Origin: Mycoplasmopsis agassizii | GTDB taxonomy: Bacteria; Bacillota_I; Bacilli_A; Mycoplasmatales; Metamycoplasmataceae | Direction of reading: 5' to 3' | Assembly (NCBI RefSeq): GCF_002272945.1 | Contig: NZ_NQMN01000001.1 | Span: 507,027-531,026, forward strand | DNA length: 24,000 bases | Part shown: piece by piece, positions 5,076-14,236 of the stretch | How positions within the stretch are numbered: the first letter of the stretch is position 1 | How the letters are laid out: each line of letters begins with the position of its first letter | Translations under genes and position numbers: made by a program | The notes under the pieces: model-generated | The model's database searches: none | What the model saw: only the letters and a program-made list of their open reading frames with translations | What the model was told of the DNA's origin: nothing

Positions 5076-7930
5076 TTATTTTAGGTCTTTTCAATAACCT
5101 TTTACTAGTGATTCTTTTAAATCTTTAGCATACATAGGATACCATTTATCATAAATATAATAAGTTGCATAAAGGGGTGTCCCATCTTTTTTTCTTTTAC
5201 TTTCTTCACCCATAGAAAGTTCTTGCAATTTGTAAGATTCAGATTCTTCAGAACCACTTAATCAATTATTTATTAAAGGATAAGCTGTGTACCACGCAAA
5301 TACTGCCCCAAGGTATTTAGTTGCAAAAACATAGAAAGTTATTTCAAGTCTATAAATTGCTTTTTTGTAAACATCTTTTATTTTAGAATTACTTTCTTTA
5401 AAATATTCTCTAGCAAGTAAAATTGAAAATTCACTTATTACTTCTTTTAGTTTTTCAAACACATTTCAACCAAAACCAATCTTTGATTCTGAACTAGATG
5501 AAAAATTTTTTTCAAAAAGTTCTTTATATAAACTGCTTGTTTCTGTATCTGAGGTTTCAAAGAAAATATTGACTAAATTTGCAAACGAATGAATGTCAAA
5601 GCTATTATCTTCTTTAATTAAATTTAGATTAAATAACATTCCATCTAAATTAAATATTTTAGATTTAATTAAATCTGCAAAAGGAAGATTAGTAATTTGA
5701 TTTAAATTAGTTAGATCAATTTTTGATAAAACATCTTTTATCAAAACATCAAAAATATCTTTAGTTAAAAAGCCGTCAACTACATTTGCTAAACTATCTT
5801 TGAATAGTTTAAAATTAGCATCTTCAGGTTTAATTTTTAATCCGGCTTCTTCTATAACTTTTGCAGTAATTGATGTTTTAAATGAATCATCTTTTAAAAG
5901 AAGCCTAAACAACTTTTTTATTAAATCTATAAATTCTTGCTTATCTTTCAATCTAGAAATTAATTTAGATAAGAACTGATTTAATGATGTAAGCGAAACA
6001 TATTGATCACTATTTTCTAAAAAATCATTAACTGATAAATTTATTAAATCCAGTAGGTTTTGATTTTTTAAAATCCCTTTAAAAGTTGTTTCACTAATTT
6101 CTAATGGTAGTTTTAATTGTTCAACTAATTTGAATAATAATGTACCCATTTGATCATTTTCAAATGTTGATTTTAGAAAGTCAGAAACAACTTTTTTAAT
6201 TGCTTCTTTTTGTTGTTCTGTTTTAGTTTTTAATCCTGAAACTAAGGTATTAATAAAAGGTAAAATTGCATCATCTTTTGATAGCATTTTTACTAATTGA
6301 TCTTTCAGAATTGCAAGTGTAATTTTTTGTGTTCCTGCTATTCCATTTTGATCTAAATCATCGGTATTTACGGCGTTTTGTAAATTAAATAATAAATTTG
6401 TTATGACTTCAGAATTGATTAAAGAATCAACTATTCAGTCAAAATTTTGGTCATCATTTATGAAGTTTAAAATCGATGATAAATCAAGAGGAAAACCAAA
6501 AGATGCTGCTTGTGAAAACATAGTTTTAACAAGCATTTTTACTTCTGTTTTATTTGAGTTTACATATGAAGAAACAACATCTTTCATAGATGAATGTTTT
6601 ACATTTTTAAATTTAGTTTGTAGCTCATCTAATTTTAATAGAATATCTTTTTCATCTTTCCCATAAACTTTTTGAACTAATTCTCTATCAGAATATTTTT
6701 GATTAAAAAGATTTAATTTATTAAATTTATTTTCATCATTTGCAAAGTAAACTTTATCTCAATTTGGAATTAAACTAGACAATTCTTTTTGACTATTTTG
6801 TTTTAAAAATAATTTTAAAAATAAATCTTGAGCAATCTTTTTATAACCAATTGTACCAGGGTGAATATCAAAAATTGTTGGTGCAAAAGTATCACTATTT
6901 TTTGCTCAATCATCTTTATCATAAACATCTATATAGTTAATATTTTGATTATTAGTTCTTAATTTTTCAACTGCTTTTTTAATTGCATTATTTAAGAAAC
7001 CTAAAATTAAATCAGCAGGATCATCAAAGAAACTAATTTTAGTTTTTATAATTTCATTTAATGTATTAGTTAATCTTAGTAGTGGCATTGGATATGATAA
7101 AAATACAACTTGTGCATTTGGATTCATCTTTTTAATTAACTCACTTACTTTATTAATATCACTTTGAATTACTGAAGTAATTTTATTAATATCACCCATT
7201 AAACCAAAACCAACTTTTCCACTAAAGATCATTGGAAATAAATTTTTAAGTGCATTTAAATAATCATTTGCTCCTAAATTAATTGTAATTAAATTAGCTG
7301 ATTTAATTTTTTCATGTAGCTTATTTAAATCATTTTTACTAAATGATCCAAATTTTTCTTTTACAGAATCTTTAAAAGGATTATCTTCTTTAGAATCTAA
7401 AGAACGCAAAAAATTGAAGCTAGTTTGGTTAGATTGACTTTGATCATCAATATTTAAAAGGTATAATCAGTCTTTTAAAGTAGACCCTGTCAAGGCATAG
7501 TTATCATATGTTTCTAATTTTGTTTCATCAACTGATTTAACAAAATTAGCTAAGAAATCAATGTAACTTAGTCCTGTATTCTTAGAATCACCTGATAATT
7601 GATAACCATATTCACCGTTAAAACCTGCAGCAACTGAATCACCTAGAGCAAGTAAATTAAGTTTTTCTAACTTAATTCTTGAATCAGGAATTGTCAGTAG
7701 GTTATTATTAAGATTATCCTTACCAGCTGCTTTTTGCTCAGCTGCTTTTTGCTCAGCTGCTTTTTGCTCAGCTGCTTTTTGCTGGTCTGTATTATCTTGA
7801 TTTACTGGTGTAATTCAGTTGAGCCTGAATTATCTCCATTGACTGCACACGCAGTTGCGATTAATGCACTTGCTGATACTATTAAAGAACCTGAAAGTGC
7901 AATTAAAAGTCTTCGTCTTTTAATTTTCAT
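5076..7930 (-). pseudogene. GDSL/SGNH-hydrolase (lipase/esterase) lipoprotein with a ~595-aa helical C-terminal extension; signal peptide and body are in different frames as sequenced
   Basis: ATG at 7930 encodes MKIKRRRLLIALSGSLIVSASALIATAC (lipobox ATAC) and hits TAA at 7802-7804 after 42 codons. The body frame (shared by track ORFs 6906..7409, 5466..6287, 5262..5462) opens at 7829 with no ATG/GTG/TTG before the catalytic Ser. SGNH blocks are all intact: LLALGDSVAAG (GDS 7632-7640), LGANDY (7263-7274), FDIHPGT (D 6867-6869, H 6861-6863). Stop TAA 5076-5078. A 1-nt insertion anywhere in 7805-7829 would restore one ORF of about 951 aa, so this may instead be a sequencing error. Confidence 0.65.
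7725..7783 (-). repeat. 15-nt tandem repeat, 3.9 copies (agctgctttttgctc on +), encoding (QKAAE)n just after the lipobox
   Basis: Three perfect units at 7725-7739, 7740-7754 and 7755-7769, plus 14/15 of a fourth. Translates on the minus strand as QQKAAEQKAAEQKAAEQKAAG. Unit length is a multiple of 3. Confidence 0.9.
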
Positions 7931-8100
7931 ATTAATTTATTAAAACCTTTCTTAATTTTTTGGAAATCTCTTCTCTCAAATTTGGTGTTTAATTAAACAT
8001 AAAAATATTATCGAATTAATATTTTTTCCAAGATTTTTTTAAAAAATATTTAGGAAAAAATATTAAAAAAATATTTGTATTGCCACTATCTTATTATTAG

Positions 8101-8150
8101 TCAAAAAATTGGTTTTTTATCTAAAAATTAATCAAAAACCAATTTTTTGA
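8101..8150. repeat. Perfect 17-bp inverted repeat with a 16-nt spacer in the ADH / GDSL-lipoprotein intergenic region
   Basis: tcaaaaaattggttttt (8101-8117) is the exact reverse complement of aaaaaccaattttttga (8134-8150). Confidence 0.85.
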
Positions 8151-8315
8151 CATTTTTGATTTTTTTGTGAATAAAAAATAAAAAAATTGAAAAAAGTAAT
8201 TAATTTTTTTATCTTGGCTTTTAAAAATTTTCTTGATATTGCTTTGGTATCGCCCACAAAAAATTCTTATTTTACAAAATAAATGAGTTAGTAAAATATT
8301 TTGAATTTTTGAAGC

Positions 8316-8347
8316 AAAAATAAAATCACTCAAATAATTTTGAGTGA
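8316..8347 (-). terminator. Rho-independent terminator of the alcohol dehydrogenase gene
   Basis: 9-bp stem tcactcaaa (8326-8334) / tttgagtga (8339-8347), 4-nt loop, U-rich tail on the minus strand (plus-strand aaaaataaaa 8316-8325). Confidence 0.7.
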
Positions 8348-8425
8348 CTAAATTTAATTATTTATTAATTTCAATTTCTAAAATTGAATGTTTAGTTTGG
8401 TTCAGTTTAAGTTTAAGAGTTAAAG

Positions 8426-9520
8426 TTATCTTTCGATATCGTTTCTGATAATAACCTTCATGGCGTGATGTTTTTCAGCATTTTCAAAAATATCAAATGC
8501 TTCATTTGGTTGATCAATTTTGCTTAGTTTAAAATTACGGTGTTCAGGTTTTGATAATAATTCAGTTGAAATTTTGCCTGCTTTGATTTTACTTAATAAA
8601 TCAACTGTTGTGTTAGCACTTACTAGCCCTGTTGAAACAGTAATATTTTTAATTCATAAATTATTTAGGTTAAATGGCACTGGTTTACCATGTACTCCAA
8701 CAACTGAAATATGCCCACCAACTGCTATAGTAACTTGTGCTAGATCAAAGGTTGCAGGATAACCTACAGCTTCAATTGCTACATCAACTCCTTGACCATT
8801 AGTTAACATATAAATTTCTTCAGCAGCTTTAGAAGCATCACGGCTATTAACTACGTGAGTAGCACCTGATTTTTTAGAAAGTTCTAAGCGATCATCATTA
8901 ATGTCAGCAACTATGATCATTTTTGGATTAAAAGTTAACGCAGTTAATAAAGCAGCAGTTCCTACTGCACCTGCACCAACTATTAAAACTGAATCAGTTG
9001 GTTTAATATTTGCTTTTAAAACACCAATTTCATAACCTGTAGGTAAAATATCTGAAGTAAAAATCGCCTGATCAACAGCAATATCTTTATCTAGTTTAAT
9101 TAATGAATGATCAGCGAAAGGCACTCTAACATATTCAGCTAAAGTACCATCAATTTTGTAACCAAAGATTCAACCACCACCATTTGTACAGTGAGCTTGT
9201 AGATTTTTTTTACAATTATCACAAATTCCACAAGTGCTAACAGCTGAAACTATAACTCTGTCACCAACTTTAAGATCCTTAACATCAACTCCAACTTTAA
9301 CAATTGTTCCAACACCTTCATGACCTAAGGTTGTACCTTTATCCATGTAAGGTATTTTATCGTGCTTGATACCTAAATCAGTACCACAAATTGTGGTAGT
9401 TTCCATATGCACAATTGCATCTGAGTCTTTAATTAATTTGGGCGTATCTTTATCAATTAATTTAACTTCACCATTACCTTTCCAGACTAAAGCCTTCATT
9501 TTTTCGGGTAAATTTGACAT
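8426..9520 (-). CDS. Zn-dependent alcohol dehydrogenase (medium-chain dehydrogenase/reductase family), 364 aa
   Basis: Track ORFs 9170..9625 and 8654..9124 are in one frame, joined through TGA codons. GHEGVGTIVKVG catalytic-zinc motif, structural-zinc cluster CGICDNCKKNLQAHC, Rossmann LIVGAGAVG. Start taken at MSNLPEKMKALVW (ATG 9518-9520), preceded by AGGTTAGGA. Stop TAA 8426-8428. Confidence 0.9.
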
Positions 9521-9914
9521 AATATTCCTAACCTTTACTTTAAAAAAGTAAATTTCTATATATAAAAATCTTACAACTTTTACAAAAAAATTAAAAAATA
9601 ATTGAAAAAGTTTAATTTTTTTCATATCAAACTGAAAATTTTAAATTTATTTAAAAAATTACTTTTTTAGGTGTATAAGAGCATAAAAACAACTTTTTGA
9701 TTAATTTCAATATTGATTTAAGTTGCTTTTTCGAAAATTTTAACCATTTATTAACGTTAAAAATTTATATCTTCAAAATATTAAAATTATCTTCTTATTT
9801 AAAAAAACGATTTTTTGGATACTGAAAAAATCTTCTTAAAAAGAGTACTGTTGAATATTTGCTTTGTTAAAAAATATTAATAATTTATTTTTAAAGTCTA
9901 TTTTGGAAATTTAA

Positions 9915-9920
9915 TATAAT
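9915..9920 (+). promoter_or_regulatory. Candidate -10 box (TATAAT) for subtilase S8-1
   Basis: Perfect TATAAT 31 nt upstream of ATG 9951. GAGG RBS at 9942-9945. No convincing -35. Confidence 0.3.
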
Positions 9921-9950
9921 TATTGCATTAAAACTAAATTTGAGGTAAAC

Positions 9951-11951
9951 ATGATAAAAAATAAAAAATTTAACATTTTAAAAAAACTAATTCTTCTGTC
10001 TTTTGCAAGTGCTACATTTTTGTCTAGCTTTGCAAATATTTCTGCAAAGAATGACAATACAATGGAAGAAAACAATTCTGTTAAAGATAAAAAAACATTT
10101 TTAGATAATCTAATTGAAAAAATAAAAAAATCTGATTCAATTGAGGAAATTCTTAAAGGTAGCATAATAAACTACAAAAAAACTGAACAACAATTTAAGA
10201 CTAATTCTTTAAGCGATTACATTACTTCTTTAAAAAACGGTGCTAATCGATTCGATATTGTTTTTAAAGCAGGTAGAGATTCAAATTTAATAAATCATTA
10301 TGTTGAAAAAATAAAATTAGCAATAAACAGCCTTTCTGCTAAATATATTTACTCTGAAAATTCTTTAACGTTTTCTATTGCTTTTGATTCATTAGAAAAT
10401 TTTAAGAAAATATTTTTAAAATTGCTAACTATAGAAATAGACTCTCAAGATATATTACAAGTCAATGTAAATGAAACAGGTAAAACAGTAGAACAGTTAA
10501 AGCCTGCTTATTATAAAAATATATATAAAATTTTGCTTGGATCAGATCCAGACATAGGTGGTAGCCCGTTTATTATCTACGATGGAGAAAGTTCTTTTTG
10601 AGAAAATTATAATTGATTAAATCAAGAAAGATACAGACTCATAGGTTTGACATACCCAGTTCTAAGTGAAGAAAGAAGAGATAGTGCACCCATAGTTGGA
10701 AAGAAAAAACTTGTGAAAGTTGGAATTTTAGACCCTTCTGGGATTATTGATACAAGTGCAAAACAATTTTGAAAGTCAACAAAAAAGGTAACTCATGATG
10801 ATTTTTTTCTTTCTGAATCTGTAGGACTTCACGCAAATCGTGTAGCCGAAGTTATAATAGGTAAGCAGGGCATAACGCCTTATGTGGATCTTTATAGTTC
10901 TCAGTTTGAAGATTGAAATGGCATAGCAGGTGAGTTAAATTGATTTATAAATAACGGTGTGCATGTAATTAATAACAGTTGGGGATCGGTTTATCAAAAT
11001 CTTACAGCTTATAATGCTGATGCTCAATGGCTGGACAACTTCTTACTTCAAAATAGTGAAGTAGTCTTTATAAAAACAGCAGGAAATGAGGGGAATCCGT
11101 TAAAAAAAGGATATAAAAAGGGCAACGAATTTCTTGAGCACAGATCATTATCTTTTAATTCAATAATTGTTGGTGCATTAGAAACCCAAGAGAGAGTAAA
11201 AGGACAAGCATTTAGCGAAATTTCTAAAAACGTTAATTATGTTACAACTTCAGCACCTGATCTGTTCATATCTGAATTTGAAGATGAAAAAGGGCTTCAT
11301 GCAATAGGTGGTACAAGTTTTGCAGCACCTTCTATTACAGGGATTGTTGCACTTCTTAAACAGCCAAAATATCAAGCAAAACTTAACCAAGGAAAAGACT
11401 CAATAATTATCAAAAGTGCTATTATTTCTGGTTCTAGAAATAATCTAGATGACTATCTATGAAATAATCAAGAAAAATCTGTATGAAATCATAACTATAA
11501 TAACAAAACTGGATTTGGTAGAGCAAATTATTCAAAAATTCAAGAATCATTAAATAATTTAGAATATTTTAGACTAACTTCTCGCTATACAGAAGACAAT
11601 AAATACGTAAAAAAAGTTTATATAGACAAGGGTAAAAAATACCGTGTTAATATAACATGACAAGTTAGGGATTTACTTCATCGCTTTCCAATAGATAAAA
11701 GTGTTTGACTTTATAATGTACCTACACCCGATGATACTTTTACGCCACCAGTATCAATTTCACTAAATGTAAGATTTCCAGGGAACTCTGGAAAAGTAGT
11801 ATCAGTAGACAACAACCTTTGAAATACAAAGATTGTAGATTTTGAAGCAACAGAATCAGGTTATTATAGCTTCGAGGTATTCTATAATTCAATACTAAAA
11901 GATCCAAGGCTAAAAGATTATGATGTGGCGATGACCTATTCTCAATTCTAA
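9951..11951 (+). CDS. Subtilisin-like serine protease (peptidase S8) with N-terminal signal/anchor, I9-like propeptide and C-terminal beta-rich domain (666 aa)
   Basis: Track ORFs 9951..10601 and 10959..11462 share frame 0; I read all intervening codons and only TGA interrupts. Triad and oxyanion motifs: VKVGILDPSG (Asp codon 10731-10733), GLHANRVAEVI, INNSWG, TAGNEGN, GGTSFAAPSITG. Propeptide-like RFDIVFKAG...YIYSENSLTFSIAF...LQVNVNE. Hydrophobic N-terminus LILLSFASATFLSSFANISA with no Cys lipobox. Stop TAA 11949-11951. Confidence 0.88.
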
Positions 11952-12858
11952 ATTTAAAAAAAATAAATACATATTTATCTTATTTTCACCTATAACAATT
12001 ATTTCCTCATTGGCATTAGTCTCTTGTCAGGGATACTGGGCAGAAATGAGAGACAAACAGTATACAGGTGATACTGCTGCTATTTATAGTAAAAAAACAT
12101 CTAACAACCAAGAATATGTTCAACTTAATATTGTGGGATATAATCGCTATTTTTCCTTTAGTGATTGATATTGGTCATACCAAAGATACGGTGAAGACGA
12201 TACAAATGATCCTAACCAGTATTTTAACAATGTTGTTAAAAAGAATAAATGAGAATATGATAATAAAAAAATTCACGAGATAAGTTTAGAAGGAATTGGT
12301 AGTTCTAATTGAGTGGAATTTAATGACTTTGATTCTCAGAAAAATTTTCCTAATTACTTGAAGACTGTAAGTTTAATCAGCAGCCAAGAAAACCTAAAAA
12401 AACAATTAAGATTAACGGCAGATGAAGAGAACAAGTATAAAAATTATCTAGAAAGAGTTAAGAAAAAAACACTGACTAATGATGAAATAAAAGCACTAAT
12501 GCCATGGAGTGATAGTTTTAATGAAAAATCCATCAACTCAAAATTAAATTTAGAAAAGTTTGATTATATATTTTTAAAAGATCTATGAAGATACATTGAA
12601 AGTCCTATGATTCAAGTTTCAAGAGTAGATGCTGGTATCGAAATTATTGATTATATTGTTAATTTAGAAAATAAAACAATAAAAATTAAAACTTATATTG
12701 TCCCTGAAAAATTTCAAACTAGTGGAGTAGTAAATCAGGGAATATCATGAGCTAATCCACCCAGAACTACATCTTTTTTAATACCTGTTGAAAAAGGTAA
12801 AATTTCTGATTTTAATATGAATGAGTGAAATATAGTTTTAACTAGAAGTGATATTTAG
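11920..12858 (+). CDS. Lipoprotein LpA, uncharacterised paralogous family (312 aa), start overlaps the S8-1 3' end
   Basis: Frame 1 opens after TAA 11911-11913. ATGATG at 11920-11925 preceded by AAGG (11906-09). Signal peptide KFKKNKYIFILFSPITIISSLALVSC with lipobox Cys at 12025-12027. Track ORF 12313..12588 is in the same frame; only TGA interrupts. Stop TAG 12856-12858. Start choice is the uncertain part. Confidence 0.7.
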
Positions 12859-12903
12859 AAAATCATTTATTTAAAAAATTCGATTTTACAGAACAAACAT
12901 TTA

Positions 12904-12935
12904 TACTAAGCCAAAACAAGTGGCTTAGTATTTTT
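12904..12935 (+). terminator. Rho-independent terminator after LpA
   Basis: 9-bp stem tactaagcc (12904-12912) / ggcttagta (12922-12930), T5 run 12931-12935. Confidence 0.7.
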
Positions 12936-13265
12936 AGTAAAAAAAATTCTAAATACAGATATACAGAGTTTTAATTATGTTTCAAAGTGCAAAAATATTT
13001 ATTCAATTAAAGCACTAAAACTATTATTTATAGTTACTTCAAATTAATATATAAAATTGTACTCTTATTATAAAAATATTTAATAATCAATAAATAATTT
13101 GCTTTTTAAAAGTGATTAATTTGCACATGAATTATAATTTGCTTGCCTTATTACTGGATTGGAATAAAAGTATTATAAAAAATTTTAGGTAAAAGAATTT
13201 CATTATTAATTGCCTAGTTAAGTGTTAATAAAAAAATACAAATAAATAAAAATGTTAGGATTAAA

Positions 13266-14192
13266 ATGAAATTACAAACTCAAAAAATTAAGAAAATATT
13301 TCTCCTTGCTGCCTTACCAGCTGTAACATTTTTTGTTTCATCACTAGTTGCATGTAGTAACTACTGAGCAGAAATGCGTGATAAACAATATGTCAGTGAC
13401 ACTGTAGTTATTTATAGTAAAAGTACTGACTCAAAGAAAAACTATGTTCAGTTGAACATAGTTGGGTTTAACAATTGATTCTCATTTAGTGATTGATATT
13501 GATCATACCAAAGGCAAGGTCCGAGTAACATAACTGATCCAAAACAGTTTTTTAATACTTCAGTTAAAAAAGATCAATGAATTTATGAAAACGGTCAAGT
13601 TCATGAATGATCAAAAATGGACATAATTAATGAATTGATGCCTCAAAAAGAATTTAAAGATTTTTTAATTCAAAAAGGTTATCCTAATTATTTAAAATCT
13701 ATTAGTTTGGTTACTGATCAAGAAAGCCTTAAAAAGCAACTAAGATTAAATGATGAAGATCAAAAAAAGCATAATACCTATTTAGAAAGAATTGAGGGGA
13801 AAACTTTAACAACTGCTGAATTAGCAAAATTAAAGCCTTGATCAGAAAGTTTTAATCAGCAAACTATTGAGTCAAAATTAACTTTAAAAGATCACGACTA
13901 TTTATTTGTTAAAGATCTTTGAGAATATTTTTCTTCCACGGCAATAAGAGTTTCTAGAGTAGAAGCAGGGATTGAATTATTAGATTATATAATTGATATT
14001 GAAAATAAAATAATTAAAATGAAAGCAGGTTTTGTTGCTGAAAAGTTTTGCTCTAATTGTGCGCATAATGCTAGAGCTGTATATGCTTATCCACCTAGAA
14101 CTACATCTTTTTTAATACCTGTTGAAAAAGGTAAAATTACTGATTTTAATATGAATGAGTGAAATATAATTCTGACTGAAGGTGATCTTTAA
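13266..14192 (+). CDS. Lipoprotein LpB, paralog of LpA (308 aa)
   Basis: ATG 13266 after an AGGA RBS. Signal peptide MKLQTQKIKKIFLLAALPAVTFFVSSLVAC (lipobox LVAC). Collinear with LpA throughout (YWAEMRDKQY, YVQLNIVG, FSFSDWYWSYQR, PNYLK, LKKQLRL, PWSxSFN, VSRVxAGIE, PPRTTSFLIPVEKGKIxDFNMNEWNI). Stop TAA 14190-14192. Confidence 0.82.
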
Positions 14193-14207: not shown

Positions 14208-14236
14208 AAAATAACCGTTTCAATAACGGTTATTTT
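14208..14236. terminator. Rho-independent terminator after LpB (convergent with tRNA-Ile)
   Basis: 12-bp stem aaaataaccgtt (14208-14219) / aacggttatttt (14225-14236), 5-nt loop, T-rich 3' side. Confidence 0.7.

Follow-up and report, generated by a model that had tools for sequence, protein, structure and literature searches.

The pairing of a subtilase with a dedicated lipoprotein partner is already known from dentilisin, the potempins, and PrtM, and these systems are compared here with S8-1 and LpA, two overlapping genes in a stretch of 24,000 nucleotides (the window) of Mycoplasmopsis agassizii DNA, which we take to be from strain PS6 (CJF60 locus tags). M. agassizii is an agent of upper respiratory tract disease of tortoises. 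Mycoplasmas have no cell wall, and their surface proteases and lipoproteins serve feeding and host evasion; we know of no account of what retains a secreted subtilase on a wall-less membrane or prevents it from harming that membrane. A paired, multi-copy surface system that cleaves immunoglobulins, composed of a protease and a non-catalytic partner, is represented in Mollicutes by MIB-MIP.

In the dentilisin system of Treponema denticola (prcB-prcA-prtP), the subtilase sheds its acylated N-terminal segment when it is activated and is then retained by its partner lipoproteins, and deletion of prcB leads to loss of the PrtP protein (PMC8167434). The potempin/KLIKK operons of Tannerella forsythia have stop and start codons that overlap or lie <=5 bp apart, and the system is further characterized by orphan lipoprotein open reading frames (ORFs) and strain-specific presence, with PotC inhibiting the subtilase mirolase (PMC9890683). 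Potempins are proven inhibitors of 98-132 residues, encoded upstream and folded as beta-barrels (OB-fold or eight-stranded) (PMC9890683). In Lactococcus lactis, the product of an adjoining lipoprotein gene, PrtM, is specifically required for an active S8 cell-envelope proteinase, PrtP (PMC3307742).

The S8-1/LpA locus is read here as probably one copy of a multi-copy, two-gene surface-protease cassette of M. agassizii. By analogy with dentilisin, LpA may be a membrane-anchored binding partner that holds and stabilizes the S8-1 protease on the cell surface, a reading that is the likeliest of those considered and is given a rough probability of 0.4. The window has a G+C content of 27.5%, and its long ORFs are intact only in genetic code 4, where TGA encodes Trp. 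ORF calling with table 11 fragmented S8-1 and LpA and was rejected, as TGA breaks both genes and code 4 restores them. The features of the pair are as follows.

9951 to 11951, plus strand: S8-1, a subtilase of 666 amino acids (aa), from the code 4 ORF and its translation
9951 to 10046, plus strand: S8-1 signal peptide, aa 1-32, ending in FANISA and without a lipobox Cys
10731 to 10733, plus strand: catalytic Asp261 (GILDPSG), a position at which most paralogues have Glu
10830 to 10832, plus strand: catalytic His294 (GLHANRV), invariant in the family
11085 to 11087, plus strand: oxyanion-hole Asn379 (TAGNEG), invariant
11316 to 11318, plus strand: catalytic Ser456 (GTSFAAP), invariant
11920 to 11951, plus strand: S8-1/LpA overlap, with the S8-1 end (YDVAMTYSQF and stop) lying over the LpA 5' end, which is in the +1 frame
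11923 to 12858, plus strand: LpA, a predicted lipoprotein precursor of 311 aa (312 aa if begun at 11920), about 277 aa when mature
12010 to 12027, plus strand: LpA lipobox LALVSC, with the Cys codon at 12025-12027
12903 to 12939, plus strand: terminator-like hairpin with an 11-bp stem (12903-12931) and a T run

Loci were compared from M. agassizii strain 723, from strain ACA758, whose 1.25-Mb genome is complete, and from further contigs of PS6, and the S8 and LpA-like lipoprotein (Lp) families were mapped on these loci with hidden Markov models (HMMs) built in this analysis. An Lp-family ORF was found directly downstream of all 12 S8 genes or remnants examined in these three genomes. The 12 junctions comprised those of the window, L001, L002, L006, and L016, four in L004/L005 (two decayed), and three in L008. 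At nine of the 12, the window included, the Lp ATG is made from Asp-Val codons of the S8 gene (gATGt), giving an overlap of 29 nucleotides (nt). The 11 junctions outside the window thus divide into eight with the 29-nt overlap, one with a start 2 nt after the stop, one that has lost the ATG, and one between decayed fragments. The new start was found in an L008 copy with Asp-Ile for Asp-Val, where the embedded ATG is gone and a new Lp ATG stands 2 nt past the S8 stop. Another L008 copy, with GAC for GAT, has lost both the embedded ATG and the lipobox Cys, which suggests decay. If a cassette is taken to be an S8 ORF with an Lp-family ORF immediately behind it, the latter beginning within the S8 ORF or no more than 2 nt from its end, the window junction is one of its copies.

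The two genes also diverged together. Among seven intact pairs, with identities of 34-54% for S8 and 25-50% for Lp, the identity matrices of the S8 proteins and their partner Lps were correlated (Mantel r 0.93, permutation p 0.0012), which indicates that the cassette is old and that it duplicates and diverges as a unit. The overlap is retained beyond chance, as the same out-of-frame arrangement occurs in eight further S8-Lp junctions whose pairs are only 34-54% identical. The ratio of nonsynonymous to synonymous substitution rates (dN/dS) was 0.10-0.22 in Lp and S8 orthologues, compared with 0.00-0.08 in neighboring housekeeping genes, and this purifying selection indicates that both are working genes. 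Additionally, the paralogue P0025, chosen by its N-terminal MxxLxxQK motif alone, turned out to follow an S8 gene, the two overlapping by 29 nt. The motif is an out-of-frame image of the S8 tail, and it is not reliable as a predictor, since P0017 has it with no S8 gene upstream.

The S8-Lp clusters of ACA758 (L004 14738-20505 / L005 18230-22091; L008 32-1098 and 6470-7535) include two fully decayed tandem cassettes and transposase genes of the insertion sequence (IS) type (rve). At these loci, an S8 remnant that retains its N- and C-terminal ends only still precedes the intact Lp P0021.

At the window junction, the LpA frame opens at 11914, after a TAA at 11911-11913, and offers ATGs at 11920 and 11923. 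As the S8-1 stop TAA occupies 11949-11951, the overlap is 32 nt from the first ATG or 29 nt from the second. ATG 11923 is made by the S8-1 Asp-Val codons (gATGt) and its position is kept in paralogous cassettes, while ATG 11920 is an additional start, one codon upstream, made by the preceding Tyr-Asp codons. The LpA signal consists of a KFKKNK n-region (11950-11967, beginning at the S8 stop) and the core YIFILFSPITIISSLA, followed by L-V-S-C, and its lipobox Cys was aligned with the Cys of four paralogues (invariant in five aligned paralogues). Because the homology to paralogues runs through the lipobox Cys and the Lys-rich n-region, the LpA start is placed upstream of the lipobox, at one of the two embedded ATGs. 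With its basic n-region, hydrophobic core, and lipobox ending in Cys, LpA is predicted to be a bacterial lipoprotein and a substrate of signal peptidase II. A programmed frameshift that would fuse S8-1 to LpA was rejected, as the signal peptide and lipobox would end up inside a protein of 970 aa.

An AAGG at 11906-11909 is a weak Shine-Dalgarno match, with a free energy (dG) of about -4 kcal/mol; such matches at the embedded starts are mostly weak, yet the remaining S8 and Lp starts do not have stronger ones. No plus-strand terminator was found between the S8-1 start and the LpA end, the first being the hairpin at 12903-12931. An earlier reading of the window from its letters (the sequence-only reading) had described an embedded LpA start preceded by AAGG, a lipoprotein signal, and two genes with no terminator between them and the first one after LpA, all of which were recovered here. 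It had also placed the start at the ATGATG of 11920, 32 nt inside S8-1, and here only the embedding stood: the conserved ATG is the second, at 11923 (29 nt), and the start is not necessarily at 11920.

S8-1 is composed of the signal peptide, an N-terminal region of about 220 aa, the S8 catalytic domain, and a C-terminal region of about 150 aa, and no family match was found for the N- and C-terminal regions. The Pfam domain PF00082 was matched at aa 285-501 (E 3.9e-18, 66.2 bits against a cutoff of 21.8), in what is a very divergent subtilase, with a top PDB match at E 3.5e-4. The His, Asn, and Ser are kept in eight of eight aligned relatives, and subtilisin Carlsberg aligns with the Asn and Ser regions; the Asp and His were assigned by motif position only. 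The complete S8 active site of the sequence-only reading was found at Asp261, His294, Asn379, and Ser456, and its signal peptide without a lipobox Cys was confirmed as well, the N-terminus MIKNKKFNILKKLILLSFASATFLSSFANISA being Cys-free and ending in FANISA. Its I9-like propeptide was not borne out: PF05922 had no match in the whole protein at E <= 0.1, nor in the isolated N-terminal regions of S8-1 (aa 33-250) and its paralogue S8-2 even at E <= 10. The [IV]SA ending of the signal peptide, common to most S8 paralogues, suggests a type I signal peptidase site at which S8-1 would be cleaved. Since S8-1 has neither a lipobox nor a C-terminal hydrophobic segment, and has this [IV]SA site and a long N-terminal region, its mature form is probably unanchored.

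In the public records, both signal peptides have been removed, and so both proteins look cytoplasmic. S8-1 is 100% identical to an M. agassizii record named "S8 family serine peptidase", which starts at Met38 (629 aa) and loses the first 37 residues (9951-10061 of the window), the signal peptide among them. LpA is likewise 100% identical to an M. agassizii database protein, whose record of 270 aa starts with MRDKQ at Met43 (12046), downstream of the lipobox, so that the conserved signal peptide is cut off (11920-12045 of the window).

The window includes a second subtilase of the S8-1 family.

23016 to 24000, plus strand: S8-2, cut by the window end

S8-2 has Glu (GVLEYGG, 23856-23876) in place of the catalytic Asp, and its orthologue in ACA758 is directly followed by an overlapping Lp gene. 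The Asp column of the subtilase clade is occupied by Glu in most members (VGVLEYGG, VGILEAKG), including S8-2, P0007, P0009, P0010, and P0011 of Mycoplasmopsis bovirhinis. Among the aligned relatives, Asp was found in S8-1 only, with His, Asn, and Ser invariant. The clade may use a Glu-His-Ser triad.

The Lp family is unrecognized, as the sequence-only reading had held for LpA. No credible Pfam or NCBIfam match was found for LpA, its paralogues, and 21 family members, the latter scanned against Pfam at E <= 10; the best matches, at E of about 0.005, were to unrelated DUFs. An exhaustive HMMER search of 1.84 billion representatives with the Lp profile yielded 24 clusters, and M. agassizii was the source of all 10 new clusters that were looked up and of the four named by the first search. 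A scan of genome contigs located the family in M. agassizii 723 only. An AlphaFold2 model of LpA from four sequences was set aside for its predicted local distance difference test score (pLDDT) of 60. With 21 sequences, the mature protein was modeled as a single domain (pLDDT 83, predicted template modeling score 0.86) with a helical insert between N- and C-terminal beta strands. A Foldseek search with this model gave no match in PDB (best E 0.54, template modeling (TM) score 0.11) or BFVD, and the Lp profile had no match among PDB sequences. Strongly conserved motifs of the family include PWSxxFN and SFLIPVEKGKI, and Pro/Lys-rich stalks follow the Cys in some paralogues (P0022, P0025).

Domains of the known partners were also sought. 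No rotamase domain was found in Lp by Pfam or NCBIfam, and no PrcB-type domain in the 21 members with hmmscan at E <= 10, a search in which the HMMER filters drop very weak matches. We take the C-terminal domain of PrcB to be Pfam PF14343. LpA aa 150-300 (about 12370-12820) and aa 160-220 of an M. bovirhinis lipoprotein share a weak common pattern of SLI..xE.L, DF/DY with a hydrophobic strand, and a beta hairpin. Its likeness to the PrcB C-terminal domain, presumed by eye, has no match in Pfam and is a lead rather than a finding.

In the search, M. bovirhinis was the only other named species with close relatives of the S8 protein. At its locus L003 (10001-12599), an S8 relative with 30% identity is overlapped at its end by 26 nt by the gene of a 268-aa lipoprotein. 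This partner, compared with the Lp family by hhalign, aligned over the signal peptide only (probability 14%) or over a weak C-terminal stretch (E 0.021, probability 2%), and homology of the two was rejected as unsupported. Two more S8 copies in M. bovirhinis are decayed, each followed by a truncated relative of the 268-aa lipoprotein, the family of which was found in M. bovirhinis only.

In the mechanism proposed here, the first gene encodes an exported S8 subtilase without a lipobox, the long N-terminal pro-like region of which is possibly removed on activation, leaving a mature protease that would have no membrane anchor of its own. The second encodes a lipoprotein of a species-restricted family and an unrecognized fold, with a start within the last 29-32 nt of the first gene. 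As this start lies inside the end of the first gene, both products would come from one mRNA, and the translation of Lp would probably be tied to ribosomes that are finishing the protease. The Lp would then hold and stabilize the mature enzyme on the wall-less surface, in the way known for PrtP and its lipoproteins PrcB and PrcA in the dentilisin complex of Treponema. What the comparison itself shows is an arrangement like a transcription unit with an embedded start codon, an invariable order of S8 before Lp, co-divergence, and purifying selection. We infer from this the co-translation of S8-1 and LpA, their physical binding, and the anchoring role of LpA; their stoichiometric co-expression may follow as well.

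Several observations on solo Lp genes, the junction, and the variation among strains weigh against this reading. The Lp genes outnumber the S8 genes, and three solo members lie in the window.

13266 to 14192, plus strand: LpA2, solo paralogue that is 55% identical to LpA and has a start and a terminator (14208-14236) of its own
20335 to 21384, plus strand: LpB1, solo lipoprotein of 349 aa, 36% identical to LpA, with an orthologue dN/dS of 0.10-0.15
21661 to 22707, plus strand: LpB2, solo Lp-family lipoprotein of 348 aa

Elsewhere, P0017 is equipped with a separate terminator, start, and ribosome-binding site (AGGAG) and has no S8 gene within 6 kb on either side, and P0015 adjoins DUF31 protease genes, with no S8 gene within 10 kb on either side. 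Solo and coupled members are intermingled in the neighbor-joining tree. The many solo Lps indicate that the family has a function without the need for an S8 gene in cis. The LpA model matches no known protease-partner fold, and the strength of Shine-Dalgarno matches does not differ clearly between coupled and independent starts. A promoter scan returned 24 sites against 30 expected, which is uninformative in such AT-rich DNA, and an internal promoter is possible. Moreover, the mature part of LpA is nearest to the solo copies LpA2 and LpA' (an ACA758 gene described below), at 55-63% identity, compared with 30-35% to other coupled Lps. The S8-1/LpA pairing may be a recent recombinant rather than a co-evolved pair, because the segment that contains S8-1 is specific to PS6.

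9771 to 12036, plus strand: PS6-specific segment, with S8-1, its promoter region, and the LpA signal peptide as far as the lipobox

The segment is absent from ACA758 and 723, and homology to ACA758 resumes at about 12037, just past the lipobox. Between the dehydrogenase gene and LpA2, ACA758 encodes a 303-aa Lp, LpA', with its own promoter region, an AGGAG site, and an ordinary signal peptide, and no S8. At the S8-1/LpA site of strain 723, there is only a frameshifted LpA'-like gene and no S8. LpA and LpA' share 63% identity, with a synonymous divergence (dS) of about 1, which suggests old alleles or paralogues exchanged by recombination rather than simple orthologues. The possibility that a deletion had turned the 5' end of S8-1 into the LpA' signal peptide was rejected: the two 5' regions are unrelated by nucleotide alignment, and that of LpA' is common to ACA758 and 723. 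The interval from the dehydrogenase gene to rpsI is a hot spot at which Lp genes are gained, lost, or left to decay; LpA2, for example, is intact in PS6 and split by a frameshift in ACA758 (loci compared with the window: L011 9650-10576 and L001 9929-10840).

Solo copies are themselves intact and under purifying selection, and at least one still has the 3' tail of a lost S8 gene upstream. The sequence-only reading had proposed a functional pair, to be doubted if Lp genes were common without S8 neighbors. Its claim is strongly supported by comparison as far as the S8 genes are concerned, given the Lp behind each of the 12 and the co-divergence of the pairs, and is weakened on the side of the Lp genes, which are common without S8.

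The main rival to the anchoring partner is a cognate inhibitor for self-protection, in which the Lp would bind the protease active site and shield the surface proteins of its own cell, like the potempins. The bicistronic, overlapping layout resembles that of the potempin/KLIKK operons, and the solo Lps and the PS6-only pair recall the orphan ORFs and strain-specific presence of that system. The partner families are species-specific and fast-diverging, and a wall-less cell would need protection. Potempins, however, are small, upstream-encoded beta-barrels, whereas the Lps have about 277-340 aa and are encoded downstream, and the LpA model matches no PDB chain, those of potempins included. Mature LpA, with about 277 aa, a downstream position, a best Foldseek match of E 0.54 and TM 0.11, and a profile that found nothing in PDB, does not resemble the potempins in these respects. 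The size of the mature Lp and the stalks of some paralogues would fit a surface-presenting subunit better than a small inhibitor. Furthermore, the S8 protease could already be held inactive for a time by its own long pro-like N-terminal region, and the PWSxxFN and SFLIPVEKGKI motifs are present in solo copies as well. An inhibitor role is accordingly rated as rather unlikely.

A second rival, which we regard as unlikely, dispenses with physical partnership: the Lps would be expanding, variable surface lipoproteins that ride in S8 transcription units, and the overlap would reflect genome compaction. Solo Lps are numerous, intact, and under purifying selection, switches between the coupled and solo states are frequent in the tree, and the clusters contain decayed copies along with IS elements, a typical trait of surface-antigen loci in mycoplasmas. 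The ATG, too, follows automatically from Asp-Val codons (GAT GTN) in an AT-rich genome, but where the embedded ATG was lost, a new start is found 2 nt after the stop. Riding alone would also have to account for the Lp kept directly downstream at 12 of 12 S8 genes or remnants, even though these have diverged to about 35% identity, and for a non-homologous lipoprotein at the same overlapping position in M. bovirhinis.

A third rival casts the Lp as a substrate-capturing adaptor, which would bind a host protein and present it to the protease as MIB does for MIP. Paired, multi-copy genes for a binder and a protease have a precedent in the clade in MIB-MIP, and a diversified Lp repertoire, solo copies included, could widen the range of targets; yet Lp has no similarity in sequence or fold to MIB or to any binding domain, no result of this analysis points to a host ligand, and the adaptor is considered improbable. 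Finally, a start of LpA at Met 12046, which would make it a cytoplasmic protein with no signal peptide and no gene overlap in keeping with the 270-aa database record beginning MRDKQ, is hardly credible. Upstream of that Met, LpA is still homologous to four paralogues, over GYWAE, the lipobox Cys, and the Lys-rich n-region; the S8-1 record from the same caller is also truncated with its signal peptide removed; and of the eight other junctions with a 29-nt overlap, six (L001, L002, L006, L016, and two in L005) were annotated with the overlapping start by gene callers.

A broader view, tentative and on balance doubtful when taken as a whole, would be that Lp is a previously unseen fold and a dedicated, cassette-encoded subtilase partner, whether anchor or inhibitor. 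The cassettes would diversify, recombine, and leave orphans like polymorphic toxin-immunity loci, with unrelated lipoproteins recruited in other Mycoplasmopsis and a mostly Glu-His-Ser triad in the proteases. As part of this joint view, recombination would swap the S8 and signal-peptide module onto different Lp bodies, as possibly occurred at the window locus.

The remaining genes of the window, from the code 4 map, are as follows.

First block, minus strand: helicase, GDSL-lipase lipoprotein (5076-7930), and zinc alcohol dehydrogenase genes
First block, plus strand: S8-1 (9951-11951), LpA (11920 or 11923 to 12858), and LpA2 (13266-14192)
After LpA2, minus strand: rpsI and rplM
Next, plus strand: mraZ, rsmH, an ftsA-like gene, ftsZ, and osmC
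Last block, plus strand: LpB1 (20335-21384), LpB2 (21661-22707), and S8-2 (23016 to the window end)

The GDSL-lipase lipoprotein gene also varies among the strains. In PS6, it is split by a 1-nt deletion, CC to C near 7812, right after the signal peptide; it is intact in 723 and split at a different place in ACA758. Its AAEQK repeat (7731-7775) has three copies in PS6, six in 723, and more than 12 in ACA758. The protein could be a variable or phase-variable surface enzyme, or the split an assembly error. At locus L009 (373-2882 / 6905-10996), the solo P0015 is divergent beside a gene of 940 aa with Lipoprotein_17 and DUF31 (Myco_protease) domains, and nearby a 320-aa ORF and the gene of a 515-aa DUF31 protease overlap by 1 nt. 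Membership of the 320-aa protein in the Lp family was rejected, since the HMM had no match to it. This pair may be another protease-partner pair of a different kind.

At least 12 cassettes, together with solo partners and strain-specific alleles, make this a compact test system with repeats and natural variation, and the fold of the partner protein is confidently predicted yet has no known relative. The truncated records of S8-1 and LpA represent systematic annotation errors, which hide the system from screens for surface proteins and vaccine candidates because both records lose their signal peptides. Literature searches (agassizii with subtilisin; mycoplasma S8 with lipoprotein) returned no description of an S8-Lp pair. 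Relative to the searchable literature, the Lp family, its predicted fold, the conserved out-of-frame start, the multiplicity of the cassette, and the unrelated lipoproteins apparently recruited to the equivalent position in another species appear to be new.

Compared with the known systems, the locus shares with MIB-MIP the organization of a paired, multi-copy surface system of protease and partner in Mollicutes. MIP is a DUF31/PF01732 protease, whereas S8-1 matches only PF00082 and LpA nothing; the sequence-only reading was right that the proteins resemble neither MIB nor MIP, as no PF01732 or MIB-type domain was matched. DUF31 proteases are encoded at other loci of the M. agassizii genome. 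PrtM differs in being a parvulin-type peptidyl-prolyl isomerase of the PrsA family, whereas Lp has no rotamase or other Pfam domain. The prtM and prtP genes are transcribed divergently and do not overlap. The potempin loci are alike in their tight bicistronic pairs of lipoprotein and secreted peptidase, present in several copies with a subtilase as one of the peptidases, and unlike in that Lp is two to three times larger, encoded downstream, and of a different predicted fold. From dentilisin, the cassette differs in the order of its genes, as the Treponema partners lie upstream of the protease and Lp downstream, in the absence of a lipobox from S8-1, whereas PrtP is a lipoprotein precursor, and in sequence, with no similarity and no PrcB-type Pfam match among the 21 Lp members. 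It resembles dentilisin in that public annotations cut the acylated N-terminus of the partner there as they do for LpA (PMC8167434), and in its overall plan of an S8 subtilase that would be co-transcribed with partner lipoproteins unique to a narrow group of species.

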